A stretch of DNA of 64,000 bases from an uncultured Verrucomicrobiota bacterium (GCA_937872895.1 CALMUP010000022.1:82874-146873); one strand, 5' to 3'. Shown: positions 7,695 to 20,104, counted from the stretch's first letter. Notes: generated by a model from the letters alone, not told the origin. Numbers and translations: made by a program.

Positions 7695-8501
7695 ATGAGC
7701 AACAAGCGTTCACGACCCGTGGTGATGACGATAGCCGGTTCCGACTCGAGTGGCGGTGCGGGTATCCAGGCCGACTTGAAGACCTTTTCAGCGCTGGACG
7801 TGTTCGGCACGTCGGCCATCACCTGCATCACGGCCCAGCATCCCGGCCGTGTGGATGGTATCAGTGCCATTTCGCCCGACATGGTTACGCGCCAGATCCA
7901 GATGATCTGCGAGGCGTTTCCGGTTACAGCGGCAAAGACGGGCATGTTGTATTCGGCGGATATCATCCGGGCGGTGGCGGCGGCTGATGTTAGCCAGGGC
8001 ATTCCGATCCTCGTGGTCGATCCCGTCATGGTGGCATCATCCGGGGCCCGCCTGCTTCAGGGCGATGCGATTGCCGCGTTGTGTGCCGATCTCCTGCCGC
8101 AGGCGCGGGTGATCACGCCCAACCTGCATGAAGCGGAAATCCTGGTCGGGCATAGCATTTCCAATGTTGATGAGTTGCGCAAGGCGGCCCGGGAGATCGG
8201 TCAGAAGTACGATGTGGCCTGTGTGGCCAAGGGCGGCAACCTCGGTGGCAGCGAGGTGGTTGACGTCCTGTACGATGAAGGCGAGGAACACGTATTTACC
8301 AGCCCTCGGGTGTCGGCCAAGCAGAGCCACGGCGCCGGCTGTACCTTTTCCGCGGCGTTGACGGCCTATTTGGGGATGGGCCATCTGATGACCGACGCCA
8401 CACAGAAAGCCAAGGACTTCGTCCGTTTGGCCTTGGAAAACGCACTGACCCTGGGGGATCACCATCCATTGAGCTTCCCCCATGGCGCGCGATCTTCCTG
8501 A
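7695..8501 (+). CDS. thiD: Hydroxymethylpyrimidine/phosphomethylpyrimidine kinase
   Basis: [39 protein letters not shown] and a C-terminal [10 protein letters not shown] motif. ATG 7695 was chosen because the longer ORF overlaps the divergent TolC gene. Confidence 0.85.
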
Positions 8502-10890
8502 TTTCCCGGCCGCCCGAACGCCCGGGCATGTAGCGGCCGCACTGGCCGCCAAGGTAGTGCAGTATCGTCCTCGCCGCATCCTGCCGGTCATCGCTCTTGT
8601 GTATGCTGCGGGCATCTGGTCGGGCGCGTGGTTGATCGTGCCTGTATGGGCCTGCCTGCTTGCGTTGGCGTTGTTGTTGATCTTCGCGGTGATCACGCGG
8701 TTTGCGTCATGGTCTTCCATTCCTTTACTTCTGGCTGTTGGACTCGCGGGTATGGCGGCCGCCACGTTTTCCTCGGGACGTCATGATGCGCGGTCACTGG
8801 ATCAACGGCTTGTCCGCGAGCGGGAATCGGCCGTATTGACCGGTCGGGTGGTGGACCTGCCGGTGCGGGTTGATCTCGATCAACGCGGAGTACCGCATTG
8901 GTCGATGACATGCGAGGTGGAATGGCTGGGGGAGCAACCGGTTCGCGGAATGGTGCGGATGTATATGCTCGATGGCGAGGATGGAGGGGCACCGAGGTAT
9001 GGGGATCGGTGGCGCTGGCATGGAACAATCCGGGCGGACCGGCGGCCGCTGGCGGAGCGTCGGGGTGTGTTGGCCGTCATGCATGCCGATCCGCAGCGTT
9101 CCGAGCGGATTTCCGAGGGCACGGGTTCACGATTCGCCGCCTGGTGTCATGCGCGACGCGCCGACGCGCACGATCGGCTGGGGTGGGGGCTGCCCGAGGA
9201 CTCGGAATCCGTGGCACTGGCTCGGGCGATGTTGCTTGGTTTTCGGCAAGAGATCGACCGCACAGTGCATGACGCATTTCTGCGCACCGGCACCTTGCAT
9301 ATCATTGCCTTGTCAGGCATGCATGTCGGAATACTGGTTTTCCTGCTGGGTCTGATCCTGAAATCGGCCGGCGTAACCCGCGAGCGCTGGATTTTCTGGG
9401 TCGCGCCACTGCTGGTTTGTTACACGGTCGGAACGGGAGCTGCACCCAGCATGGTCCGTTCCACCATCATGGCGGTGGTGTTTTTTTCAGCGTACCTGTT
9501 CCGGCGCAAACCGGATGCGTTGAGTGCGCTGGCAGGCGCGGCGCTGCTGATCCTCGCCGTCGATCCGATGCAACTATTTGATGCCGGCTTTGTCCTTTCC
9601 TTTGTTTCGGTCGGAGGGCTGGTGTCCTTGTATCCCATGATCGTTGGCTGGCTGGACCGGATGATGGCCGGCGATCCGTGGGAGGTGGATGATCCTTCGT
9701 CGCACCGATGGTGGCGAAGCGTGAAAGAGGGTATCACGGCGGCGTTCTCGGTATCGCTGGCCGCCTGGTTGGCGACGCTTCCCCTCATCATCGGCTTGTC
9801 GAACATCCTTAGTCCGGTTTCGCTGGTGGTCAACCTGTTCATGGGTCCAGCGTCCTTCCTGCTGCTATTAACCGAGTGCCTGGCGGCCTTGTCCGGATTT
9901 TTCTCGTACCAACTGGCGGTTACCTTCAATCACGCCCACGATGTGTTTGCCTCGGTGCTGCTGGGGGGAATCCTGTGGACTGCGCGTTTGCCGGGAGGTT
10001 GCTGGTATGTCGCGACCTGGCCGCTGGCACTGGTCGCATTGTGGTACCTGATGGTGATCATGGCGGCGGTTGGCCAACGATGGCGACGAGGCGTTGCCGT
10101 GGCCTGCTTGTCGGCGATGGTGATCGGGTCGATGGGGTGGCGTAGTTGGTCGGATACGATCGAGCTGGTATCGGTACCGGCGGGTGAGGGGGAAGTGGTC
10201 GTTCTCGACGGGCCGGGTGATCAGGTGGTTGTGTTTGATGCGGGCCCGTACTACCAGCATCGCCGCGTCATCAGGGCGTTGCGGGCCCGGGGCATTCACC
10301 GGATCGATGCGGTCTGGATTACCCGGGCCAACAGCGAGGCCTATGGCGGGCTTACCGCACTGATTGATGCGATGGATGTACGGGCGATCCGGCATCCGCA
10401 ACCGGTGATTCGGCAATCTACGTTCGAGACACACCGCCAGCGATGGGCGGAACGGATGGGCAGTGACCGGGTTCAGCCATGGTCAACCAATGCATGCATT
10501 GCCGAAGCGGGCGATCTTTTGGTCGAGCGGTTGTGGCCGCAGGGTATTCCGGTGTACCGCTCGGCGGGTCAATCGACGTTGATCATCCGGGCCAGTCGCG
10601 GGCATCACGCAGTCGTGGTTGCCGGTAAGCTGGACGCAAGTCTGGAGCAGGTCCTGCTTGAATGCCCGGTGGATTGGGCGGCGACAGGACTGGTGGTCGG
10701 GGGGTGCAATTCGGATCAGGCGTGTGGCGAACCATGGCTTGATGCCGTCGAGCCGGCATGGATTCGGATCAATCTCGAGTCTTTCCGGCGCCAGCCATGG
10801 GGGGACCGGCCCATCCGCGACCGCATCGCCAGCAAATCGGCCATGCAGTTGATTGAAAACGAGGGTGACCCTTTCGTCTGGCGATTCTGA
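8482..10890 (+). CDS. comEC: ComEC/Rec2-family DNA internalisation channel protein (with a degenerate C-terminal metallo-beta-lactamase-like domain)
   Basis: Competence-domain signature LRTGTLHIIALSGMHVGIL and many TM helices. The C-terminal VSVPAGEGEVVVLDGPG…VWITRANSEAYGG resembles the MBL fold. Confidence 0.8.
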   Translation: MARDLPDFPAARTPGHVAAALAAKVVQYRPRRILPVIALVYAAGIWSGAWLIVPVWACLLALALLLIFAVITRFASWSSIPLLLAVGLAGMAAATFSSGRHDARSLDQRLVRERESAVLTGRVVDLPVRVDLDQRGVPHWSMTCEVEWLGEQPVRGMVRMYMLDGEDGGAPRYGDRWRWHGTIRADRRPLAERRGVLAVMHADPQRSERISEGTGSRFAAWCHARRADAHDRLGWGLPEDSESVALARAMLLGFRQEIDRTVHDAFLRTGTLHIIALSGMHVGILVFLLGLILKSAGVTRERWIFWVAPLLVCYTVGTGAAPSMVRSTIMAVVFFSAYLFRRKPDALSALAGAALLILAVDPMQLFDAGFVLSFVSVGGLVSLYPMIVGWLDRMMAGDPWEVDDPSSHRWWRSVKEGITAAFSVSLAAWLATLPLIIGLSNILSPVSLVVNLFMGPASFLLLLTECLAALSGFFSYQLAVTFNHAHDVFASVLLGGILWTARLPGGCWYVATWPLALVALWYLMVIMAAVGQRWRRGVAVACLSAMVIGSMGWRSWSDTIELVSVPAGEGEVVVLDGPGDQVVVFDAGPYYQHRRVIRALRARGIHRIDAVWITRANSEAYGGLTALIDAMDVRAIRHPQPVIRQSTFETHRQRWAERMGSDRVQPWSTNACIAEAGDLLVERLWPQGIPVYRSAGQSTLIIRASRGHHAVVVAGKLDASLEQVLLECPVDWAATGLVVGGCNSDQACGEPWLDAVEPAWIRINLESFRRQPWGDRPIRDRIASKSAMQLIENEGDPFVWRF

Positions 10891-10956
10891 TCGCCGTTGG
10901 CGTTCGCCCAGGTATGTTGTACGGTTCTTCGCGTCAACAAGCCGGGAGTAGTTACC

Positions 10957-11616
10957 ATGCCGACCAGCACGGTGGAAGATTACATCAAACAGGTATATCT
11001 GATCCAGCAGGATGCACGTGGCGGAGTTGCCCCGATGGGGCGGATATCCGAAGCGCTGGGCATAACGCCCGGGACAACCACGACCATGATCAAGGCGTTG
11101 GCCGATGATCACTTGGTGGTGTATGAACCGCGGGTAGGAGTGCGTCTTACCGATACAGGCGAACAGCTCGCCTTGAAAGTCTTGCGACGTCACCGTATCG
11201 CGGAAGCATTTCTGGTGAAGGTTCTGGGCATGGATTGGTCTGAAGTGCATGAGGATGCGGAACGGCTGGAACATGCGATCTCGGACAAGGTGCTTGATCG
11301 AATGGATGCCTTGCTCAACCGGCCAACCCATGATCCGCATGGCGACCCGATTCCAGCGAATGACGGGGCCATGTCACCGGTGTCCACCACCTGTCTGGCC
11401 ACTGCGACCGAAGGTGCCAGAATCACCATCGCGCGCATCAACGACCAGTCCCCACGGTTCCTTTCCTATGCACGTTCGGTTGGATTGATCCCCGGTGCGG
11501 TGCTCCAGGTGATGGAGCGGTGCGACCCGGCCGAATCGATCACGGTACGGTTCGATGGAAGCCGAAAGACCCTCAGCCTGAGTGCGCGCGTGGCGGGCAA
11601 GATCGACGTACGATAA
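10957..11616 (+). CDS. DtxR/SloR/TroR-family metal-dependent transcriptional repressor (wHTH + dimerisation + SH3/FeoA-like domain)
   Basis: MPTSTVEDYIKQVYLI, RRHRIAEAFLVKVLGMDWSEVHEDAERLEHAIS and HDPHGDPIP. The C-terminal FeoA-like segment is ITIARINDQSPRFLSYARSVGLIPGAVLQV. Confidence 0.85.
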   Translation: MPTSTVEDYIKQVYLIQQDARGGVAPMGRISEALGITPGTTTTMIKALADDHLVVYEPRVGVRLTDTGEQLALKVLRRHRIAEAFLVKVLGMDWSEVHEDAERLEHAISDKVLDRMDALLNRPTHDPHGDPIPANDGAMSPVSTTCLATATEGARITIARINDQSPRFLSYARSVGLIPGAVLQVMERCDPAESITVRFDGSRKTLSLSARVAGKIDVR

Positions 11617-11633
11617 TTCCAATTGGCATGTGT

Positions 11634-11651
11634 AAGGTACTGTGATACCTT
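11634..11651. promoter_or_regulatory. Candidate metalloregulator operator: inverted repeat AAGGTA-N6-TACCTT, 34 nt upstream of the SBP start
   Basis: Perfect 6-bp arms were read directly (aaggtactgtgatacctt) in the 68-nt gap between the repressor gene and the transporter genes. Confidence 0.3.
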
Positions 11652-11684
11652 CTACTTTGAATACTCAAAGTGCGGGGCAATATC

Positions 11685-12629
11685 ATGAAGTGTATCCTAA
11701 TGCTGTGGTTGGGTTTGTTTGGCTTTACGGTAGCCCGGGGGGAGCCCGTGCTCGCTGTGGCCACGGTGGGCATGGTGGCGGACCTGGTACGCATGGTTGG
11801 CGGGGACGAGGTGGATGTGGTTACGATGATCGGGGAGGGTGTTGATCCGCATGTTTACAAACCGACCCGCAACGATGTAGTGCTCTTGCAGCGGGCGGAT
11901 GTTGTTTTTTACAACGGGTTGCTGCTTGAGGGTCGCATGGCGGACGTGTTGAACCGGGTGCGGGGGCGCGGCAAGCCGGTGGTTGCGGTGGCGGAGGTAA
12001 TTGGTGAAGCACGGTTGCTCGCGGGTGAGGAGGCAGGCCATCATGACCCGCATGTGTGGATGGATGTGCGTTTATGGGCGGAGGCCTTGCCGCCGGTGGC
12101 GGATGCCCTGTCCGCGCTACGTCCGGAACACGGCGAGCGCTTCAGGGAGCGGGCTGCGATTGCGGCCCTTCAACTGGAGGCATTTGATCGGTATGTGCGT
12201 GAAGTCGCGGAGTCGATACCGTTGACCAAACGGGTATTGATCACGGCGCACGATGCTTTTCATTACTTCGGCCGGGCTTATGGGCTTGAGGTCATGGGAA
12301 TTCAAGGGCTTTCCACCGAATCGGAAGCGGGACTGCACGACATCAACCGTCTGGTCGATGTGCTGGTGGCTCGAGGAGTCGGGGCGATTTTCGTTGAAAC
12401 GAGTGTGGCCGACAAGAATGTCCGTGCACTGGTCGAGGGCGCCCGCGCCCGGGGCCACGCGGTGGTCATTGGCGGTTCACTCTTTTCGGATGCGATGGGT
12501 GCGCCGGGAACGCCGGAGGGAACCTACCTCGGCATGATCGAGCACAACATTCACGTCATCGCCGGTGCCCTCGGGGGTTCCGTTCCTGAAGGTGGATTCG
12601 CGGCATGGTCGAGGGAGGAGTTGCCATGA
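11685..12629 (+). CDS. Metal (Mn/Fe/Zn, cluster A-I) ABC transporter substrate-binding protein
   Basis: Signal peptide MKCILMLWLGLFGFTVARG, motifs DPHVYKP and HHDPHVWMD. No His-rich ZnuA loop is present. Confidence 0.85.
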   Translation: MKCILMLWLGLFGFTVARGEPVLAVATVGMVADLVRMVGGDEVDVVTMIGEGVDPHVYKPTRNDVVLLQRADVVFYNGLLLEGRMADVLNRVRGRGKPVVAVAEVIGEARLLAGEEAGHHDPHVWMDVRLWAEALPPVADALSALRPEHGERFRERAAIAALQLEAFDRYVREVAESIPLTKRVLITAHDAFHYFGRAYGLEVMGIQGLSTESEAGLHDINRLVDVLVARGVGAIFVETSVADKNVRALVEGARARGHAVVIGGSLFSDAMGAPGTPEGTYLGMIEHNIHVIAGALGGSVPEGGFAAWSREELP

Positions 12630-13423
12630 CCGGTATGCCTGCCGTTTCCCGTCATGAGCACTCCCCGGCGCATCCGCTCGCCATCCATGACATGACCGTG
12701 GCGTACCACCGAAAGCCGGTCTTGTGGGATGTCGATTTTGATATCCCGGAGGGAAACCTGGTCGGGATCATCGGCCCGAATGGTGCCGGTAAAAGCACGC
12801 TGATCAAGGCGGTGCTTGATCTCATGCCGAAGGCCTCGGGCGAAGTCATGATCTATGGACGGCCTTACCGGGAGCAGTCGCAACGGGTCGCATATGTACC
12901 GCAACGCGAAAGCGTGGACTGGGACTTTCCGGTGAGTGCGCTTGATGTGGTCACGATGGGGCGGTATGGACGGATCGGCTGGTGCCGTCCGGTTTCGCGG
13001 TTGCACCGGGAGGCCGCGCGGTCAGCTCTCGATCAAGTGGGAATGGCCGATTATGCCGAGCGGCAGATCAGGCAGTTATCGGGCGGGCAGCAGCAACGGG
13101 TATTCCTTGCGCGCGCACTGGCCCAGGAGGCGGACCTGTACTTCATGGATGAACCGTTTGCGGGGGTGGATGCCGCGACGGAAAAGGTGATTGTTGCCTT
13201 GTTGCGTCGCTTGCGCGAAGACGGCAAGACCGTTCTGGTGGTGCACCATGACCTGCAGACCGTCGCGGATTACTTCGACTGGGTGATCATGTTGAACATG
13301 CGGGTTGTGGCTGTTGGTCCCACGGGCTCGGTATTCACCCGGGACAACCTGCACAAGACCTATGGCGGTCGGTTGACCTTGCTGGATGAGGCGGCCGAAG
13401 CGGTTGCCCGATCGCCGCAATGA
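12626..13423 (+). CDS. Metal ABC transporter ATP-binding protein
   Basis: Walker A GPNGAGKST, signature LSGGQQQR, Walker B LYFMDEP. ATGA start/stop overlap at 12626; ATG 12605 is an alternative start. Confidence 0.85.
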   Translation: MTGMPAVSRHEHSPAHPLAIHDMTVAYHRKPVLWDVDFDIPEGNLVGIIGPNGAGKSTLIKAVLDLMPKASGEVMIYGRPYREQSQRVAYVPQRESVDWDFPVSALDVVTMGRYGRIGWCRPVSRLHREAARSALDQVGMADYAERQIRQLSGGQQQRVFLARALAQEADLYFMDEPFAGVDAATEKVIVALLRRLREDGKTVLVVHHDLQTVADYFDWVIMLNMRVVAVGPTGSVFTRDNLHKTYGGRLTLLDEAAEAVARSPQ

Positions 13424-13424
13424 T

Positions 13425-14819
13425 ATGATGGTGGAGTTTCCATGGGATGATCTGCGCCGCTTGACCGGGTTGGCCGACTACAACACCCGGGTGGTGTTGC
13501 TTGGTTCCCTGTTGCTCGGTCTGGTTTCAGGGGCGGTGGGGTCGTTCATGGTCTTGCGCAAACGGGCGATGATCAGCGATGTGGTCAGTCACGCCGCGTT
13601 ACCGGGCATCGTGGCCGCGTTCATGGTGCTGACCGTACTGGGAGGTGATGGTAAATCCTGGCTCGCCTTGTTGACCGGTGCCCTGATCAGCGGGTTGCTG
13701 GGCATGGCCGCGGTTCACGCGATCACCACCCATGCGCGGGTGAAGCAGGATGCGGCCCTGGGGGTCGTACTCAGTGTCTTTTTCGGCGCCGGGGTGGTGT
13801 TGCTCGGGTTCACCCAGCGGATGAAGTCCGGGTCTTCAGCCGGGCTGGAGTCCTTCATCTACGGCAAAACTGCATCGATGCTGGCATCGGATGCCTGGTT
13901 GCTCGCGGGATCCGCCCTTGCGGCCACGGTGATCTGTCTGGCCTTCTTCAAGGAGTTCCGGCTGGTTTGTTTTGACGCTGAATTCGCCCGGGCGCAAGGG
14001 TGGCCGGTGCGGCGGGTGGATGCCTTGCTTACCGGGCTGGTCGTGGTGGTGACGGTGATCGGGCTTCAAGCGGTCGGTCTTATCCTGATGATTGCCTTGT
14101 TGATCACCCCGGCGGTCACCGCGCGGTTCTGGACGGATCGATTGGGGTCGATGGTGATCATCGCGTCGGGGCTGGGTGCGCTGGCGTGCGTGACGGGTGC
14201 GGCCCTGAGCGCCTTGTACCCGCGTGTGCCGGCCGGTTCGGTCATCGTGTTGTCCTGTTCGACGCTCTTCCTGATCGGGTTGTTGTTTGGCCGGCGTCGC
14301 GGCCTGGTTCCGGAAGCATGGCGGCGCATCCGCCTGGCCGCCCGCACGGAGCGGCACCATGTCCTGCGGGCGGTCTATGAGCAATGGGAGCAGCGAGGAG
14401 TACAGGGCTTCCATGCCCATGCGGGAACGGGCTCGGTCCTCGTTTCAGCGGGGGATCTGGCTGCGGTTCGGCGTTGGTCGGAAGCGAGGTTGCAGCGGGT
14501 GTTGCGGGAGGCGGCTGCAGATGGCGACGTGGAACTGGATGCCTGGCCCTTGGTGCGATTGACCAGTCGTGGCATGAGCCATGCCCGCCAGTTGGTGCGG
14601 AATCACCGGTTGTGGGAGTGGTATCTGATCCAGCATGCGGAGGTCGATCCCCATCATGTCGACCGGGACGCCGATGAGATCGAGCATGTATTGGGAGCGG
14701 CGATGGTGCGCGAGTTGGAAGCCACGTTGCCAGGAAGGCTATCCGGGGCGGAACTGCCCTCCAGCCCGCATCCCTTGACGGATACGGAAGAGGCGGGTTG
14801 GCGAAAGGGCCCGGCATGA
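13425..14819 (+). CDS. ABC-3 family metal transporter permease fused to a C-terminal DtxR/TroR-like wHTH + metal-binding/dimerisation module
   Basis: ~300 aa of TM helices typical of TroC/MntC-type permeases. Then …HHVLRAVYEQ…LTSRGMSHARQLVRNHRLWEWYLIQHAEVDPHHVDRDADEIEHVLG, which aligns to the repressor at 10957. Confidence 0.8.
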   Translation: MMVEFPWDDLRRLTGLADYNTRVVLLGSLLLGLVSGAVGSFMVLRKRAMISDVVSHAALPGIVAAFMVLTVLGGDGKSWLALLTGALISGLLGMAAVHAITTHARVKQDAALGVVLSVFFGAGVVLLGFTQRMKSGSSAGLESFIYGKTASMLASDAWLLAGSALAATVICLAFFKEFRLVCFDAEFARAQGWPVRRVDALLTGLVVVVTVIGLQAVGLILMIALLITPAVTARFWTDRLGSMVIIASGLGALACVTGAALSALYPRVPAGSVIVLSCSTLFLIGLLFGRRRGLVPEAWRRIRLAARTERHHVLRAVYEQWEQRGVQGFHAHAGTGSVLVSAGDLAAVRRWSEARLQRVLREAAADGDVELDAWPLVRLTSRGMSHARQLVRNHRLWEWYLIQHAEVDPHHVDRDADEIEHVLGAAMVRELEATLPGRLSGAELPSSPHPLTDTEEAGWRKGPA

Positions 14820-16123
14820 GCGACTGGTCCATGATCGATACCTGGATCGTGTTGACCGGCATGGTCATTGCCATGTCCTGCGCACTTGTGGGTAACTTCC
14901 TGGTCATCCGTCGCATGAGCCTCATGGGAGATGCCATCAGCCACGCCGTGCTGCCCGGCCTGGCCGTGGCGTTCCTGCTCTCGGGCGACCGCCATCCACT
15001 GCCCATGTTCGCGGGAGCCGTTGCCGCAGGATTGTTGACGGCCTTCCTGACCGAATGGATCCGGACGAACGGGCGTATGGAAGCGGATGCGGCGATGGGT
15101 GTCATTTTCACAACCCTGTTTGCCATTGGTCTGCTCTTGATCGTACGGGCGGCGGACTCGGTCGATCTTGATCCCGGCTGTGTGTTGTATGGAGCGATTG
15201 AGCTGTCACCGCTTGATACCGTGCCCGTCGGTCCTTGGGAGTGGCCGCGGGCTTTTGCGATCGGCTTGGTCGTATTGGCGATCAACGTGGTGGTCATCGG
15301 ATTGTTCTACAAGGAATTGGTCCTGTCGTCGTTTGATCCCGAAGCGGCGGCCGCGTTGGGGTTCAAGCCGCGTCGGATCTACTACCTGCTGATGGCCTTG
15401 GTTGCGGTGACCGCCGTGGCCTCCTTCGAGAGCGTGGGCAGTATCCTTGTCATAGCGATGTTGATCGTGCCGGGGGTGTGCGGGACCTTGCTGGCACGGC
15501 GGCTGCCAGGGGTGTTGGCTGCCAGTGCCGTGGTGGCCATGCTCAGCGCGATCGGTGGGCATGTCATGGCGATTGGTATCCCGCCGATTTTCGGATTCGT
15601 GGATACCTCGACGTCCGGTTCGATGGCGGTGGCAGCTGGCATCCTGTTTGTGGGCGTTTTCCTGGTTGCGCCGGAAAACGGGGTCCTGGCGCGCTGGGCC
15701 CATCAGCGATCGTTGCGAGACCGTATCCGGTGCGAGGATGTGCTTGGAGCCTTGTACCGGTGGCACGAGGAACATGGCGAAAAGGGGCCTGTGGTGCGGT
15801 GGCCTGAACTTGCCGCGCGCATCGGACTCGGGCCCACGCAGGCGCGGCGTATCCGGCGGTTGCTGCGGCGCAACGGACTGATCGGTTATGTGGCGGATGA
15901 TGCGGTTCATCTGACCGGGGAAGGGAAACGTCAAGCGGCCATCGTGATTCGGGATCATCGGTTGTGGGAGGTTTATCTGCACCATCAAGTCCAACTGCCG
16001 GCGGATCACGTCCATGCCACCTCCGAAGCCTTGGAGCATCTGACCAGCGATGGCATGCGGCGCCGGCTGGAACGCGATGCTACCGGTGCCAGTGTTGATC
16101 CGCACGGAAAAGTGATTCCCTGA
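14816..16123 (+). CDS. Second ABC-3 family permease, also fused to a C-terminal DtxR/TroR-like module
   Basis: ATGA overlap start. TM core, then …CEDVLGALYRWHEE…LTGEGKRQAAIVIRDHRLWEVYLHHQVQLPADHVHATSEALEHLTS. Confidence 0.8.
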   Translation: MSDWSMIDTWIVLTGMVIAMSCALVGNFLVIRRMSLMGDAISHAVLPGLAVAFLLSGDRHPLPMFAGAVAAGLLTAFLTEWIRTNGRMEADAAMGVIFTTLFAIGLLLIVRAADSVDLDPGCVLYGAIELSPLDTVPVGPWEWPRAFAIGLVVLAINVVVIGLFYKELVLSSFDPEAAAALGFKPRRIYYLLMALVAVTAVASFESVGSILVIAMLIVPGVCGTLLARRLPGVLAASAVVAMLSAIGGHVMAIGIPPIFGFVDTSTSGSMAVAAGILFVGVFLVAPENGVLARWAHQRSLRDRIRCEDVLGALYRWHEEHGEKGPVVRWPELAARIGLGPTQARRIRRLLRRNGLIGYVADDAVHLTGEGKRQAAIVIRDHRLWEVYLHHQVQLPADHVHATSEALEHLTSDGMRRRLERDATGASVDPHGKVIP

Positions 16124-16195
16124 CGCGGTGGCGTTTGTTATGTCTTGGCCAGCGGATACCGGTCGTGGTTGCGCCGGATCCGCACGGAGGCGAGC

Positions 16196-17179
16196 ATGTA
16201 CGAGGCTGAACTTCAAACGGCGTTGAGTGCGGTGCGCAAGGCCATTGCGTTGGCGGAGCATGTTGCGGCGGGGCTTACCGCGGACGGTGCGATGACCAAG
16301 GCGGATGCGTCACCGGTGACGGTGGCGGACTATGGGGTGCAGGCAATCATCCACCGTGCGTTGGCCGCGGCGTATCCCGGCGATCCGATAGTGGCGGAGG
16401 AGGATGCAGATGACCTGACGAATCCCGGCAATCGCGTGCTTGCAGCCATGTTGATGCGGGCGTTGGAGGAGGCGTCCTCCGGCTGGACTGCGGCTTCCGT
16501 GGTTGAGCACATCGGTCGCGGACGTCATGCCGGGGGTGCGGAGGGCCGGTTCTGGACGTTGGATCCTATTGACGGTACCAAGGGATTCCTGCGCGGGGAT
16601 CAGTATGCGATCGCACTGGCATTGATCGAGCAGGGGCGTCCGGTGCTCGGTGTTCTCGGATGTCCGCGTCTTCGCCTATCCGTGTTGGATGGAGGAGCGG
16701 CAACCGGCTGGATCTGCCACGCCACGGCATCGGGCGCCTTCGCACAACCGATCGCAGGAGGGGACGTACATGCCCTGCGGACGTCACCGGTTCATCGCAC
16801 CGATGATCTGGTGATGTGTGAGTCCGTTGAGTCGGGGCATTCCGCGCACGATGTATCCGCCCTCATCGCCGGAGCTCTGGGTCTTCATCGTGCGCCGGTC
16901 CGGATGGATAGCCAGGCCAAATACGCCGCAGTGGCCGCCGGAGAGGCGGACGTATACCTCCGCTTGCCGACCAAGTCTTCATACCGCGAAAAGATCTGGG
17001 ACCATGCCGCCGGCGCCGTATTGGTCGAGCAGGCGGGTGGAACCGTTCGCGATGTTCGCGGCGTGCCACTCGATTTCAGCCGTGGACGCACCTTGGCGGA
17101 TAACCGTGGGGTGATTGCCAGTGCGAGCGCGGTGCATGCGTCCATCGTCAACGTGGTCGCTCCCCATTTCCCAGGCTGA
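16196..17179 (+). CDS. 3'(2'),5'-bisphosphate nucleotidase, HAL2-type (inositol monophosphatase superfamily)
   Basis: WTLDPIDGTKGFLRGDQYAIALALIE and C-terminal WDHAAG motifs. Confidence 0.7.
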   Translation: MYEAELQTALSAVRKAIALAEHVAAGLTADGAMTKADASPVTVADYGVQAIIHRALAAAYPGDPIVAEEDADDLTNPGNRVLAAMLMRALEEASSGWTAASVVEHIGRGRHAGGAEGRFWTLDPIDGTKGFLRGDQYAIALALIEQGRPVLGVLGCPRLRLSVLDGGAATGWICHATASGAFAQPIAGGDVHALRTSPVHRTDDLVMCESVESGHSAHDVSALIAGALGLHRAPVRMDSQAKYAAVAAGEADVYLRLPTKSSYREKIWDHAAGAVLVEQAGGTVRDVRGVPLDFSRGRTLADNRGVIASASAVHASIVNVVAPHFPG

Positions 17180-17243: not shown

Positions 17244-17921
17244 ATGGATATCATGCTGACACCCGAGGAAACCCGGATTCTCGGAGCCCTGCTGGAGAAG
17301 GAAGTCACGACGCCGGATTATTATCCCATGACCCTGAATGCACTGGTCAACGCCTGTAACCAGAAGTCGTGCCGCGATCCGGTTACAGCCTACGACGAGT
17401 CCACCGTGTCCTTCCACCTCGATCTCCTGCGTGAGAGTAAACGGCTGGCCGCGCTGGTATCCGGTGCGGATAACCGGGTGCCGAAATTCCGGCAACGGCT
17501 GACCGAACAGTTTTTTTTCACCCCGGCAGAACGGGCGGTGCTATGCGAACTGATGTTGCGCGGTCCACAGACGGTCGGCGAGTTGCGCAACCGTGCCGAA
17601 CGTATCCATTCCTTCACAGGTTCCGATGAGGTCCTGGCGGCACTCAAGGAACTTGAATCGCGTCAGGACGGACCCTGGGTTGTGTTGTTGCCCCGCCAGC
17701 CGGGACACAAGGAAGCGCGTTACCAGCACCTGCTCGGTGGCGCACCGGCCGCCGGTCCGGCTGATTCCGTCCTGGACGAACGGACCTCTGGAGGTTCCAT
17801 GCATGACCGGGTGGGGCCGGCCGATCGATTGGCCCGGTTGGAGGCGGAAACCACCGCGTTGCGCACAGAGCTGGATGCTGTCAAGGAAGAGCTGCGCCAG
17901 TTCCGGGCACAATTCGGATAA
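17244..17921 (+). CDS. yceH: YceH-family protein (DUF480)
   Basis: LTPEETRILGALLEKEVTTPDYYPMTLNALVNACNQKS and …ELMLRGPQTVGELRNRAERI… closely parallel E. coli YceH as I recall it. Confidence 0.75.
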   Translation: MDIMLTPEETRILGALLEKEVTTPDYYPMTLNALVNACNQKSCRDPVTAYDESTVSFHLDLLRESKRLAALVSGADNRVPKFRQRLTEQFFFTPAERAVLCELMLRGPQTVGELRNRAERIHSFTGSDEVLAALKELESRQDGPWVVLLPRQPGHKEARYQHLLGGAPAAGPADSVLDERTSGGSMHDRVGPADRLARLEAETTALRTELDAVKEELRQFRAQFG

Positions 17922-18064
17922 CCGTGCGGTGACCTGCGCCTCATCGGGGAATTGCCTAGAACGGCAACAGGTCATCTCGTCAGGCAATATCCTTGCCCGG
18001 CGTGCTTTGCGTGGTGTATCACTCGTTCACCGGTGGCGATGAGCCGTCGGACACACGAAAGGGA

Positions 18065-20104
18065 ATGAGCATGACGCAGTCGCCTGTGACCTCCACCCGC
18101 AATGTCGTGATTCTGGGCCACACCGGAAGCGGCAAAACCTCCCTGATCGATGCCATCCTGTTCCATGCCAAACAAAACGACCGGCTTGGTCTTACCGCCA
18201 ATGGAACCAGCATGGCCGACTGGACGGAAGAGGAACGCGAGCGCAAGATCTCCATTTTCGCCAAACCGTTCCATATCCGCACGACCACCAAGGAGGGGCA
18301 AACCCTTGATCTGACCCTGCTCGATACGCCGGGTTACCTTGATCTGTTTGGCCAGGCGGTGGCGGCGGCTCGCGTGGCGGATGCCGCCTTGATCGCGATT
18401 GATGCCGTGTCCGGGATCCAGGTAGGTTCGATCCGGGCCTGGCGTTTATGTGAGGCGCTCAAGCTTCCATGCGGCATCGTGATCACCGGGCTCGACAAGG
18501 AAAACGCCCGCTTCGATACGGTACTCACTGCGATACAGCAAGCCTGGGGGCGCAAGTGCGTGCCGGTAGAGTTGCCGACCCACAACCGCCAGGCCATCAT
18601 CGATATCCTGGCCGAAGGCAAGGTGCCGGATGAGTTGGCGGAGGAGGCCGAAGCCGCGATGGGTGTGCTTGAGGAGGATGCGGCGGAGGAGGACGAGGCC
18701 TTGCTCGAGAAGTATTTGAGCGGCGAGCACCTGAACCACGATGAACTCACGGCGGGCCTGCGCGTCGCGGTCAAACTGCGCCACCTGGTGCCGGTCTTCG
18801 AGACGGAAGCGCTCAAAGGGGTGGGGGTCTCCGAACTGCTTGATGAAGTGTCGCGCCTGTTTCCGTCCCCGCTCGACCGCGAGCTGCTCGATGCCGGCGG
18901 AAAGCCCGTCAAGGTTGATCCCGATGCACCCTTCTGCGGCTTGGTATGGCGTTCGGTCAACGACCCGTTCATTGGTCAATTGCAGTTTGTCCGTGTGTTT
19001 GGCGGGACCTTGCGCGCCGACTCCGAAGTGCTGAATATGGACAAGAACCAGAAGGAGCGGATCGGCCCGCTTCACCTGTTCAACGGCAAGAAGGACGAGA
19101 CGGTCGGGGTCGCCACCGCCGGCCACATAGTCGCGCTGGCCAAGTTGAAGGCCACTGGAACCAATCATACCCTCTGTGCGCCCGGGTCGGACATCCTGCT
19201 GCCGCCCATCCAGTTTCCCCAGCCGGTCATGTCCGTGGCGGTGGTGCCGAAGACCCAGGGCGATGATGACAAGATCGGTATCGGATTGCACCGGGTGGTG
19301 GAGGAGGATCCGACATTGCACCTTGAGCGCAACACCGAAACGCACGAACTGATTCTGTCGGGCATGGGCGACATCCATCTCGATATCGCGGTCAGCCGGA
19401 TGCGCAAGCGCAGCAACGTGGATGTTGACCTGCAGATTCCGAAGGTTGCCTACAAGGAGACCGTTACCGGTCGCGGCGAGGGGCACTACAAGCACAAGAA
19501 GCAATCCGGTGGACGCGGTCAATACGGCGAGGTGTACCTGAAGGTGGAAGCGCGGGATGCGGAGGATCCGGAATGGTTCGTGAACGAGGTCGTCGGCGGC
19601 GCGATTCCACGCAATTTCATACCTGCCGTGGAGAAGGGCGTGCTCGAAGGCTTGCATCGCGGTGTGCTGGCCGGGTTCCCGGTGATCAATGCCAAGGTTC
19701 GCATCACGGATGGGACCTACCATGATGTGGACTCCTCCGAGGTGGCATTCAAGATCGCCGGTTCGCGGGCGTTTTCCGATGGTGCGGTCAAGGCCCGGCC
19801 GGTTCTTCTCGAGCCGATCATGACCATGACCATCACCATTCCGGAGCAATATATGGGGGACATCACCGGGGACTTGAATCACCGGCGCGGACGCATCCTG
19901 GGCATCGACGTCAATGCCGGCATGCAGACGATCACCGCCGAAGCGCCCCAGGCGGAAATCTTCCGGTATGCCGCTGAATTGCGGAGCCTGACCCAGGGGC
20001 AAGGCGTCTTTGAGGCATCCTTCGCGCGGTATGATTCCGTTCCCGCTCAGATCGCCCAGAAGATCATTGCCTCCGCCGTCAAGCACGAGCATACCGACGA
20101 ATAG
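18065..20104 (+). CDS. Elongation factor G paralog (EF-G-like GTPase with divergent G3/G4 motifs)
   Basis: P-loop GHTGSGKTS, switch I ERKISI, G3 DTPGYLDL, and G4 position ITGLDKE. Domains II-V are clearly EF-G-like (…HLFNGKK…, GMGDIHLDI, KHKKQSGGRGQYG, …TDGTYHDVDSSE…). Confidence 0.85.
   Translation: MSMTQSPVTSTRNVVILGHTGSGKTSLIDAILFHAKQNDRLGLTANGTSMADWTEEERERKISIFAKPFHIRTTTKEGQTLDLTLLDTPGYLDLFGQAVAAARVADAALIAIDAVSGIQVGSIRAWRLCEALKLPCGIVITGLDKENARFDTVLTAIQQAWGRKCVPVELPTHNRQAIIDILAEGKVPDELAEEAEAAMGVLEEDAAEEDEALLEKYLSGEHLNHDELTAGLRVAVKLRHLVPVFETEALKGVGVSELLDEVSRLFPSPLDRELLDAGGKPVKVDPDAPFCGLVWRSVNDPFIGQLQFVRVFGGTLRADSEVLNMDKNQKERIGPLHLFNGKKDETVGVATAGHIVALAKLKATGTNHTLCAPGSDILLPPIQFPQPVMSVAVVPKTQGDDDKIGIGLHRVVEEDPTLHLERNTETHELILSGMGDIHLDIAVSRMRKRSNVDVDLQIPKVAYKETVTGRGEGHYKHKKQSGGRGQYGEVYLKVEARDAEDPEWFVNEVVGGAIPRNFIPAVEKGVLEGLHRGVLAGFPVINAKVRITDGTYHDVDSSEVAFKIAGSRAFSDGAVKARPVLLEPIMTMTITIPEQYMGDITGDLNHRRGRILGIDVNAGMQTITAEAPQAEIFRYAAELRSLTQGQGVFEASFARYDSVPAQIAQKIIASAVKHEHTDE

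Follow-up and report, generated by a model that had tools for sequence, protein, structure and literature searches.

The closest described system is the YtgC-YtgR protein (CT069) of Chlamydia trachomatis, whose tail is cleaved off to give an Fe-dependent repressor that binds the operator; fusions of the YtgC-YtgR type have been reported in 11 phyla (PMC5599777, PMC6504234). A review likens the C-terminus of YtgC to TroR, which represses troABCDR Mn-dependently. Experimental data on homologous fusions come from Chlamydia YtgC-YtgR only. The locus described here shares with that system a single open reading frame that joins an N-terminal ABC-3/TroC-like permease to a C-terminal TroR/DtxR-like domain in which the metal ligands of DtxR are conserved, and a place in a Tro-type A-B-C-D operon (ytgABCD in Chlamydia). 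Here both permeases carry the DtxR-like module in the same frame. The permease-DtxR fusion is itself already known. A preliminary description of this DNA had treated prior characterization of the fusion as counting against its proposal, and this applies in part: YtgC-YtgR is known, but a description of the double fusion was not found in the accessible literature, though such double fusions are frequent among environmental bacteria. Newly seen are the paralogous tails, their apparently fast-evolving DNA-reading helices, the match of operator with repressor, the helical junction, and reduced tails in relatives.

Gene content and the transporter

The window, the 64,000 nt stretch of DNA that was analysed, contains five tightly coupled, co-directional genes on the + strand. 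A free-standing repressor, REP (10957–11616, 219 aa; Pfam PF01325, PF02742, PF04023), is followed by a TroA-like binding protein (GTG at 11670 or ATG at 11685, to 12629; PF01297), an ABC ATPase (12626–13423, 265 aa; PF00005), permease 1 (13425–14819, 464 aa) and permease 2 (14816–16123, 435 aa), the last two each showing PF00950 and PF02742. The ATPase start overlaps the binding-protein gene by ATGA at 12626, the permease 1 gene starts 1 nt past the ATPase gene, and permease 2 again overlaps permease 1 by ATGA. Open reading frame analysis thus agrees with the preliminary description on the coupling of the five genes and on the unusual lengths of the two permeases. The identical five-gene set is found in two syntenic relatives, L033 and L035.

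The binding protein is a cluster A-I SBP with a signal peptide (PF01297 ZnuA, E-value = 6.9e-73). Its best solved relative is Treponema pallidum TroA (1toa, E-value = 2.9e-80), to which its DPH, DPH, HD and SD(A) motifs align. The ATPase matches the NCBIfam Mn/Fe ABC ATP-binding protein family (E-value = 3.4e-71), and a Pfam search shows no additional regulatory domain in it. The TroC-like membrane domain of permease 1 (residues 1–289, 13425–14291, + strand) matches PF00950 at residues 21–288 (E-value = 1.4e-57) and has a D52-x3-H56 motif, putatively for metal coordination in the channel, that is invariant in 99 sequences. The TroD-like membrane domain of permease 2 (residues 1–285, 14816–15670, + strand) matches PF00950 at residues 11–284 (E-value = 3.4e-48), and both residues of its D39-x3-H43 motif are invariant. 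In AlphaFold2 (AF2) models both membrane domains match PsaC (7kyp) by Foldseek with TM = 0.81–0.87 (permease 1, 0.86; permease 2, 0.81–0.86). Streptococcus pneumoniae PsaBC shares the membrane-domain fold and the D-x3-H motif, at about 31% identity; its PsaC chains, 258–290 residues long in the structure, match the membrane domain of the permease models only. In PsaC, Asp46 and His50 are channel metal-coordination residues (PMC8346216), and the D-x3-H residues of the permeases may be their equivalents, as judged from a shared motif at a similar place in the protein and not from a residue-level alignment. The profile, the PsaC-like fold, the D-x3-H motif and the operon company place the permeases in the ABC-3 Tro/Psa type II group. 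By these similarities the locus is a Tro/Ytg-type high-affinity divalent-metal ABC importer with a TroC/TroD-like permease heterodimer. Mn(II) is its most probable substrate, with Fe(II) or Zn(II) as possible alternatives.

Domains and ligands of the permease tails

The tails are here called T1 (permease 1 residues 294–464, 14304–14816, + strand) and T2 (permease 2 residues 290–435, 15683–16120, + strand) and were delimited by Pfam, hhalign and AF2/Foldseek, together with phmmer for T2. T1 consists of a junction helix (294–327), a winged helix-turn-helix (wHTH) domain to about residue 380 with an invariant W351, a metal/dimerisation domain (381–436) and a C-terminal P-x-S-P-H motif. The parts of T2 are a junction helix (290–320), a wHTH to about residue 367, a metal/dimerisation domain (368–423) and a D-P-H-G-x-x-I-P end. 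Both tails give significant matches to the DtxR-family profile PF02742 (T1, residues 380–435, E-value = 7.6e-12, 45.5 bits; T2, residues 367–435, E-value = 1.3e-15, 57.6 bits; gathering cut-off, 27 bits). The wHTH profile PF01325 stays below threshold in both tails in the Pfam search (best E-value = 0.13), and thus two of the three domains that had been expected on the permeases, PF00950 and PF02742, were found and PF01325 was not. A complete wHTH is nevertheless recovered in both tails by hhalign and AF2/Foldseek. Profile-profile alignment with the REP family by hhalign gives 99.2% for T1, spanning REP residues 5–122, and 99.8% for T2, spanning REP residues 3–133. The AF2 tails superpose on the DtxR/IdeR/DR2539 fold by Foldseek with an rmsd of about 2 Å over about 130 residues; T1 matches DtxR, SloR and DR2539, and T2 matches 8pw0 (rmsd 1.9 Å, 132 residues). 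T2 also finds DR2539 (8pvt) by phmmer (E-value = 2.8e-17).

The T1 ligands H312, H394, E398, D413, D417, E420 and H421 are invariant in 120 homologues and across loci, and the T2 ligands D308, H381, E385, H400, E404, E407 and H408 are likewise invariant in 120 homologues. At DtxR positions 10/79/83/98/102/105/106, T1 displays H,H,E,D,D,E,H and T2 displays D,H,E,H,E,E,H, both sets being nearly or fully invariant in the respective 120 homologues and between loci and phyla. PF02742, the wHTH and the primary and ancillary ligands assign T1 and T2, by sequence and predicted fold, to the DtxR/MntR family. Several statements of the preliminary description stand: both permeases are fused to two-domain TroR-like modules (PF02742, hhalign, AF2/Foldseek), both tails are without the SH3/FeoA third domain, the equivalents of H79, E83, E105 and H106 are retained in REP, T1 and T2, and position 102 is E/D/E in the three. 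The two tails are not equivalent, however, a point that it had missed. T1 and T2 are separate paralogous types, each with its own near-invariant set of ligands.

The AF2 models are of monomers, without the ATPase or the partner permease (permease 1, pLDDT 88, pTM 0.83; permease 2, pLDDT 92.5, pTM 0.85). In both, the last transmembrane helix is followed by a 5-residue turn and then by a helix of 31–34 residues that runs into wHTH helix 1, continuous over residues 294–327 in permease 1. The pLDDT of the junction helix is >90 in both models, and no disordered linker between membrane domain and tail is predicted in either. Each tail is thus predicted with confidence to be joined to the last membrane helix by a continuous helix.

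A missed stop or a frameshift could in principle have fused separate troR-like genes to permease genes; no points in support of this were found. For each permease, the 120 best database homologues all have PF00950 and PF02742; median lengths are 437 and 478 aa in the two sets. The same fused frames recur in more than 100 independent homologues per permease and at dozens of loci in several phyla, and the junction is a single confident helix in both models. With the architecture shared by over 100 full-length homologues per permease, an assembly artefact can be ruled out, its chance being negligible.

The free repressor and its operator

REP consists, over 10957–11616, of a wHTH, a metal/dimerisation domain and a FeoA/SH3-like domain, with ligands D8, H79, E83, H98, E102, E105 and H106 plus D-P-H-G-D. 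The nearest solved structures are 5zr4 (E-value = 4.6e-41) and the Mn sensor DR2539 (8pvt, E-value = 7e-33), which have the same three-domain layout. The REP ligands agree with the Mn sites of DR2539 (bioRxiv 10.1101/2024.02.12.579695): the primary Asp/Glu/Glu/His and the ancillary His/Glu/His plus D-P-H-G-D are all present, and REP has a Lys at the position that prevents a binuclear primary site. The operator half-sites are also alike. DR2539 is the nearest relative of the T2 tail too; however, DR2539/5zr4 is a free, soluble, Mn-dependent repressor whereas T2 is membrane-fused and without the ancillary domain.

A sigma-70-type promoter for the transporter operon was inferred by eye at 11623–11651 (+ strand) from an alignment of four syntenic relatives, with a −35 hexamer TTGGCA (11623–11628), a 17-nt spacer and a −10 hexamer TACCTT (11646–11651). 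In all four the −35 hexamer is kept, and a TAnnnT hexamer follows at the same 17-nt spacing; a promoter scan made no call at 11623–11651. The palindrome at 11634–11651, which the preliminary description had put forward as the operator, is present inside this promoter and its right arm is the conserved −10-like hexamer. However, its AAGGTA/TACCTT symmetry is not conserved in the relatives in the four-genome alignment, and the proposal does not hold. The conserved palindrome is ACTTTGA-ATAC-TCAAAGT at 11654–11671 (+ strand), a putative operator directly 3′ of the −10 hexamer and 5′ of the ATG at 11685. The window and the relatives L001, L033 and L035 all have the same core, TTTGA-N4-TCAAA, and the palindrome occurs once within the window.

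Palindromes of this kind (class A, TTTTGA-N4-TCAAAA) are found upstream of many related operons. Class A goes with REP-type repressors in 6/6 loci across phyla, the REP-type recognition helix TPGT.T.M.K being almost invariant across phyla, and a second class (class B, TGTAGC-N-GCTACA) pairs with short repressors with a VSHVTV.R helix, also in 6/6 loci. The class A box is similar to that of DR2539, ATTTTAG..CTAAAAT (bioRxiv 10.1101/2024.02.12.579695). The T1 and T2 ligand signatures are identical under the two classes, and T1 and T2 HTH sequences show no pattern by operator class between class A and class B loci. The upstream operator thus appears to follow the type of free repressor and not the tails, and the operator at 11654–11671 is probably read by REP.

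Possible roles of the tails and comparison with known systems

Permease homologues number in the thousands in databases, and both permeases are fused in 32 of the 68 informative operons of a TroA-type sample drawn irrespective of tails; the architecture is not rare. A free repressor adjoins 17 of the 32 double-fusion operons and is absent within 7 kb of the other 15, where the same palindromes are often present. Since operons with T1 only (13 loci) and with T2 only (1 locus) exist, pairing of T1 and T2 under one transporter cannot be a general mechanism. Some relatives have reduced tails: permease 2 in Acidobacteriota loci, and both permeases in several lineages, end in a winged helix alone (about 85 aa), and 18 proteobacterial loci have tails of about 113 aa without ligands, several of these loci showing upstream TGCGAAT-N-ATTCGCA palindromes unlike classes A and B. 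In these reduced forms the appendage persists where metal-dependent repression is impossible.

The window was compared with L001, L033 and L035, using the same genomes for REP, T1 and T2. Identity over H2–H3 is 96/89/78% for REP, 90/76/38% for T1 and 59/56/30% for T2, and the T2 wing shows 45/36/9%, while the metal domains of the tails retain 68–91% identity. The DNA-reading helices of the tails thus appear to evolve far faster than that of the free repressor, although such rapid change could also mirror lineage-specific targets elsewhere in the genome. The recognition helices of the tails are Arg-rich (mean net charge +3 to +4), which is compatible with DNA binding, and the start of the T1 helix, R-S/T-W-S/T, is strongly conserved. 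The T1 helix therefore has some conserved partner, DNA being one candidate. Overall the tails look like sensors more than operator readers.

A serious rival to attached sensors is release as in YtgR, in which a protease would free T1 and T2, and homodimers or a T1:T2 heterodimer would bind DNA metal-dependently, repressing either the importer operon, alongside REP, or other genes. The homologous Chlamydia fusion gives an experimental precedent, and the complete two-domain DtxR fold including the wHTH in both tails, the Arg-rich recognition helices and the palindromes kept at many double-fusion loci without an adjacent free repressor are consistent with it; the second, lineage-specific palindrome at 11634–11651 could in principle co-evolve with a fast HTH. 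However, the operator class tracks the free repressor, the T2 helix and wing are scarcely conserved among close relatives in which the operator is invariant, a flexible junction linker is not predicted, some relatives have winged-helix-only or ligand-less tails, and a canonical repressor is already at the locus. Release is possible, and on balance rather unlikely.

The dimerisation domain common to REP, T1 and T2 suggests another arrangement, in which T1 and/or T2 heterodimerise with REP and hold it at the membrane or free it, depending on metal load or the state of the transporter. REP adjoins 17 of the 32 double-fusion operons as this would have it, but nearly half of these loci are without it, and the adjacent repressors are of two unlike types (three-domain and short) beside an unchanging T1 and T2; we consider this improbable. 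The invariant ligand-rich sites beside the cytoplasmic exit of the permease could also bind the ion emerging from the channel and deliver it to acceptors in the cytoplasm, a hand-off or buffering role without regulation. DtxR domains as chaperones are without known precedent, however, and the retained winged-helix domain and the ligand-less tails would be left unexplained, so that the chance of this is very small.

The reading that we prefer, tentatively and at somewhat less than an even chance, is that the tails sense cytoplasmic metal, stay attached and act on the transporter, with REP controlling transcription at 11654–11671. It is preferred because of the paralogous ligand sets, the fast HTHs, the operator that tracks REP, the helical junction and the reduced tails. 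Metal-loaded REP would sit on the palindrome just 3′ of the −10 of the operon and so control its transcription. T1 and T2 would remain attached, uncleaved, as cytoplasmic metal sensors, each with its own sulphur-free ligand set and with or without contact between them. A rise in cytoplasmic metal would fill their DtxR-type sites and cause the usual DtxR-type shift of the winged helix against the metal domain, which the junction helices may pass to the membrane domains or the ATPase interface. The result would be slower import, a form of trans-inhibition. The preliminary description had offered direct metal sensing by the transporter and DNA-binding or repressor-titrating modules as its two options, and the comparative evidence tentatively favours the former.

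MetNI and ModBC have cytoplasmic substrate-binding regulatory domains that slow import when substrate accumulates. Those domains are on the ATPase and have unrelated folds, whereas the additions here are on the permeases and are transcription-factor-derived; the likeness may be one of working principle only. Membership in the MetNI/ModBC group was rejected because the 265 aa ATPase is without a C-terminal regulatory domain and the extra domains are on the permeases. With Treponema pallidum TroABCD-TroR the locus shares the A-B-C-D order, and its binding protein has TroA as by far its nearest solved relative. TroR, a DtxR-family repressor, is short and has no SH3 domain, which T1 and T2 also lack. 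However, TroR is a separate gene in troABCDR, whereas in the window C and D each carry a fused R module and a three-domain repressor is upstream. Compared by description, the Chlamydia fusion concerns YtgC only, whereas both permeases are fused here, with two paralogous tails. YtgR is called the sole iron-dependent regulator in Chlamydia, whereas at this locus a canonical repressor stands free, with a conserved operator of its own. Cleavage and DNA binding have been demonstrated for YtgR; for the tails described here, comparative data would disfavour both.

The importer genes and the permease tails

Five open reading frames make up the locus. A free-standing repressor, REP, is encoded at positions 10957-11616 and shows PF01325, PF02742 and FeoA in Pfam. 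It is followed by a binding protein (11670 or 11685 to 12629, PF01297), an ATPase (12626-13423, PF00005), permease 1 with 464 aa (13425-14819) and permease 2 with 435 aa (14816-16123). These positions, together with the ATGA overlaps and the 1-nt gap, agree with a preliminary description made from the sequence alone, which proposed that both permeases are fused to DtxR-like modules. Each permease displays PF00950 and then PF02742 (E-value = 7.6e-12 in permease 1 and 1.3e-15 in permease 2), as predicted there; PF01325, predicted as well, is below the Pfam threshold in both tails. The fusions are genuine. For each permease, PF00950 and PF02742 are found in all 120 top database homologues, whose median length is 437 aa in one set and 478 aa in the other. 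Since the fused architecture recurs in these homologues and in sampled loci, a frameshift or assembly artefact is ruled out.

The same five genes are present in the syntenic contigs L033 and L035, flanked by ComEC and a gene of the inositol-phosphatase family. In the window the neighbors are a ComEC/Rec2-like competence protein (8482-10890), an inositol-monophosphatase-family protein (16145-17179), a DUF480 protein (17244-17921) and an EF-G-like GTPase (17993-20104). The first three are found in both contigs and the EF-G-like gene in L033 only; none has an evident tie to metal homeostasis. A GGCGAT-TCTG-ATCGCC palindrome at 10880-10895 overlaps the ComEC-like stop codon just 5′ of the repressor gene. 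It is mostly conserved in L033 and in a third syntenic relative, L001, and might be a terminator-like hairpin that lacks a T tract. GC skew over positions 1-64000 is positive in almost all 2-kb blocks and the cumulative skew climbs steadily, compatible with a window that lies within a single replichore and has its genes mainly on the leading strand.

Among solved structures, Treponema pallidum TroA is the nearest to the binding protein (E-value = 2.9e-80; next match 7e-42), and the two align at the DPH, DPH and HD motifs. Zn, Mn and Fe have all been linked with TroA. Each permease retains a D-x3-H motif that is like Asp46/His50 of PsaC, a pair required for Mn translocation (PMC8346216). The relationship to TroA and the PsaC-like motifs identify the system, as judged by sequence, as a Tro/Ytg-type divalent-metal importer. 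As far as sequence can tell, the imported metal is most likely Mn(II), possibly Fe(II) or Zn(II); the ligand sets of the sensors are like those described for Mn-specific regulators.

The tails comprise residues 294-464 of permease 1 (T1) and 290-435 of permease 2 (T2). NCBIfam MntR/DtxR models match them from about model position 31 onward, and in profile-profile alignment with the free-repressor family the T1 family covers repressor residues 5-122 (99.2%) and the T2 family residues 3-133 (99.8%). The AlphaFold2 models of permease 1 (pLDDT 88.2, pTM 0.83) and permease 2 (pLDDT 92.5, pTM 0.85) have membrane domains matching PsaC 7kyp in Foldseek (TM ~0.86), and tails matching DtxR, IdeR, SloR, MntR and DR2539 at ~2 A rmsd over ~130 residues. 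The whole module of wHTH and metal/dimerisation domain, previously recognized by eye, is recovered by the profile-profile alignment and the structure models. Neither tail contains an SH3/FeoA domain, as had been noted. Beyond the last membrane helix, each model shows a five-residue turn and then a single helix of 31-34 residues (pLDDT > 90) that runs into wHTH helix 1. No disordered linker between membrane domain and tail is predicted by AlphaFold2 in either permease.

Ligand positions equivalent to DtxR 10, 79, 83, 98, 102, 105 and 106 were compared in the best 120 homologues per permease. T1 carries H312, H394, E398, D413, D417, E420 and H421, with Asp at 413 and 417 in 120/120 homologues. 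T2 carries D308, H381, E385, H400, E404, E407 and H408, and its sole variable position is 404 (E in 93 homologues, D in 13, H in 5). The reported retention of DtxR H79/E83 and E105/H106 equivalents therefore holds, with position 102 being D in T1 and E in T2. Both signatures are maintained in loci of several phyla. T2 and REP have in common the ligand set of the DR2539 Mn sites, made up of an Asp/Glu/Glu/His primary site and an ancillary site of His/Glu/His plus D-P-H (bioRxiv 10.1101/2024.02.12.579695). The T1 set is its own and is sulphur-free. An invariant Trp lies in the H-R-L-W-E motif of both tails, and T1 has a second one, W351, opening the recognition helix.

Distribution of full and reduced tails

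A first set of 32 genome loci, collected with permease 1 as query, contains 14 double fusions (both permeases tailed), 10 single fusions, in the first permease every time, and several loci without a full-length tail. A tail-blind sample was collected with the binding-protein alignment as query and gave 80 loci, 68 of them informative. Full tails are found on both permeases in 32/68, on permease 1 only in 13/68 and on permease 2 only in 1/68. A ~113-aa tail lacking the metal ligands is found on permease 1 in 18/68 loci, from Alpha- and Gammaproteobacteria; 1/68 has winged-helix-only tails on both permeases and 3/68 have no tail. The double fusions occur in Verrucomicrobiota, Planctomycetota (the cultured planctomycete Maioricimonas carries one), Desulfobacterota and Spirochaetia, and a free DtxR-family gene is situated within 7 kb in 17 of these 32 loci. 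An obligate T1:T2 heterodimer is rejected as the general mechanism because T1-only and T2-only operons exist.

Acidobacteriota single-fusion loci show a winged-helix-only extension of ~85 aa on the second permease, whose ...LAH(K/R/Q)L end matches the beginning of the DtxR metal domain in alignment. Such extensions, ~85-100 aa in length, are found on the second permease (L016:7026-8378, L018, L020:7203-8381, L022, L023, L028) or on both (L019, L021, L024, L112). They display a conserved (R/G)-W-(S/K) opening helix 3, and Pfam gives no family above threshold for them except a borderline HemN_C match. In L019 (Anaerolineaceae) a separate DtxR-like open reading frame, at 7812-8309, directly follows the second permease with its winged-helix-only tail. 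Such a gene order is what one would expect immediately before the genes of a permease and a repressor fuse.

The ligand-less ~113-aa tails on the first permease (L055, L072, L073, L080, L088, L090-L092, L097, L099, L103, L104, L106-L108, L111, L114, L115) are found in TroA-type operons of Halomonas, Ruegeria, Sulfitobacter, Azospirillum and others. They keep a degenerate ...R-(L/R)-W-E... motif and have lost the metal ligands. Upstream of several of these loci are TGCGAAT-N-ATTCGCA palindromes, which look similar to Mur/Fur-type boxes.

The operator and its probable reader

A scripted search showed two 18-bp palindromes in the 68-nt spacer between the repressor and binding-protein genes. In an alignment of four syntenic relatives TTGGCA (11623-11628), a 17-nt spacing and a TAnnnT hexamer (11646-11651) are all conserved, from which we infer a sigma-70-type promoter. 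The sole site predicted by a promoter scan is not conserved and overlaps the start codon. The palindrome at 11634-11651, put forward previously as the operator, is rejected in that role: the relatives do not keep its symmetry, and the -10-like hexamer makes up its right arm. The second palindrome, at 11654-11671, contains TTTGA-N4-TCAAA, invariant across the four syntenic relatives, and related operons in other phyla are preceded by the same class (TTTTGA-N4-TCAAAA), which is similar to the DR2539 box, ATTTTAG..CTAAAAT (bioRxiv 10.1101/2024.02.12.579695). No further operator copies are found within the 64-kb window. An Rfam search of the whole window gave no match, and therefore neither a Mn riboswitch nor any other known RNA appears to be involved.

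Two operator classes are seen before operons of this kind, class A (TTTTGA-N4-TCAAAA) and class B, (A)TGTAGC-N2-4-GCTACA(T), the latter taking the place of class A upstream of the binding-protein gene in L046, L049, L053, L057, L065, L069, L070, L074, L076, L079, L087 and L097. Where a free repressor is adjacent, class A accompanies a three-domain repressor with recognition helix TPGT.T.M.K (6/6) and class B a short DtxR-family repressor of ~150-190 aa with recognition helix VSHVTV.R (6/6), with no exceptions (Fisher exact p ~0.002, calculated by hand). T1 and T2 occur with both classes, their ligand signatures unchanged, and no class-specific HTH pattern was found in them across class A and B loci.

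With the window as reference, the H2-H3 region shows identities to L001, L033 and L035 of 96, 89 and 78% in REP, 90, 76 and 38% in T1, and 59, 56 and 30% in T2; the T2 wing gives 45, 36 and 9%. For the metal/dimerisation domain the values are 91, 88 and 71% in T1, and in T2 77% (L033) and 68% (L035), the L001 open reading frame being cut by the contig end. The operator is invariant in all four. Given this invariance, the tracking of operator class with repressor type and the fast divergence of the tail HTH, the simplest reading would be recognition of the operator by the free repressor. The surfaces with which the tails might read DNA, those of T2 above all, would then not be held by a conserved DNA site.

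Possible roles of the tails, and known systems

Tentatively, we favor tails that remain attached to the permeases and signal cytoplasmic metal to the transporter, a form of trans-inhibition. This is favored because of the invariant metal sites, the unconstrained recognition surfaces, the predicted rigid junction, the reduced tails in relatives and the separate canonical repressor-operator pair. It is possible, and put forward with some reserve, that DtxR modules which are former transcription factors have become permanently attached allosteric sensors gating the importer from the cytoplasmic side, which would make them the first permease-borne trans-inhibition domain. The winged-helix domain would be a mechanical or docking element and not a DNA reader, and the difference between T1 (H/H/E/D/D/E/H) and T2 (D/H/E/H/E/E/H) might provide two set-points or two metal specificities.

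The Chlamydia model, in which tails are cleaved and released as metal-dependent repressors, is the main rival. It has real experiments on a homologue behind it (YtgR; PMC5599777, PMC6504234), and it fits the complete wHTH fold of the tails, their Arg-rich recognition helices and the palindromes at loci without an adjacent free repressor; we consider it somewhat less likely here than attached sensing. That the tails titrate the free repressor, or serve in metal hand-off, is less likely than either attached sensing or release.

Should the tails gate transport, they would represent a new post-translational control of metal uptake, in which the fold of a transcription factor has come to serve as part of a transporter. 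Should they be released, two additional metal-dependent repressors would be produced at a fixed ratio to the importer in many bacteria. Either outcome bears on the reason for the fused form of YtgR.

Permease-DtxR fusion as such is already known from Chlamydia, the only studied case, where it is regarded as a peculiarity of an obligate intracellular pathogen. Among TroA-type importers of Verrucomicrobiota, Planctomycetota, Desulfobacterota, Spirochaetia and Acidobacteriota it is the norm, and about half of the operons sampled have both permeases fused. In the open-access papers searched, no description was found of fusions in both permeases or of permease-DtxR fusions outside Chlamydia. Apparently undescribed in these papers are the double fusion with its two paralogous types of tail, how abundant it is, the decoupling of tails from the operator and the series of reduced tails. 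REP is a DR2539-like Mn sensor, also near the Mn-dependent repressor 5zr4. The gene set is shared with Treponema TroABCD-TroR, but in the window R modules are fused to the permeases. The closest known system, by its published description, is YtgABCD/YtgR of Chlamydia.
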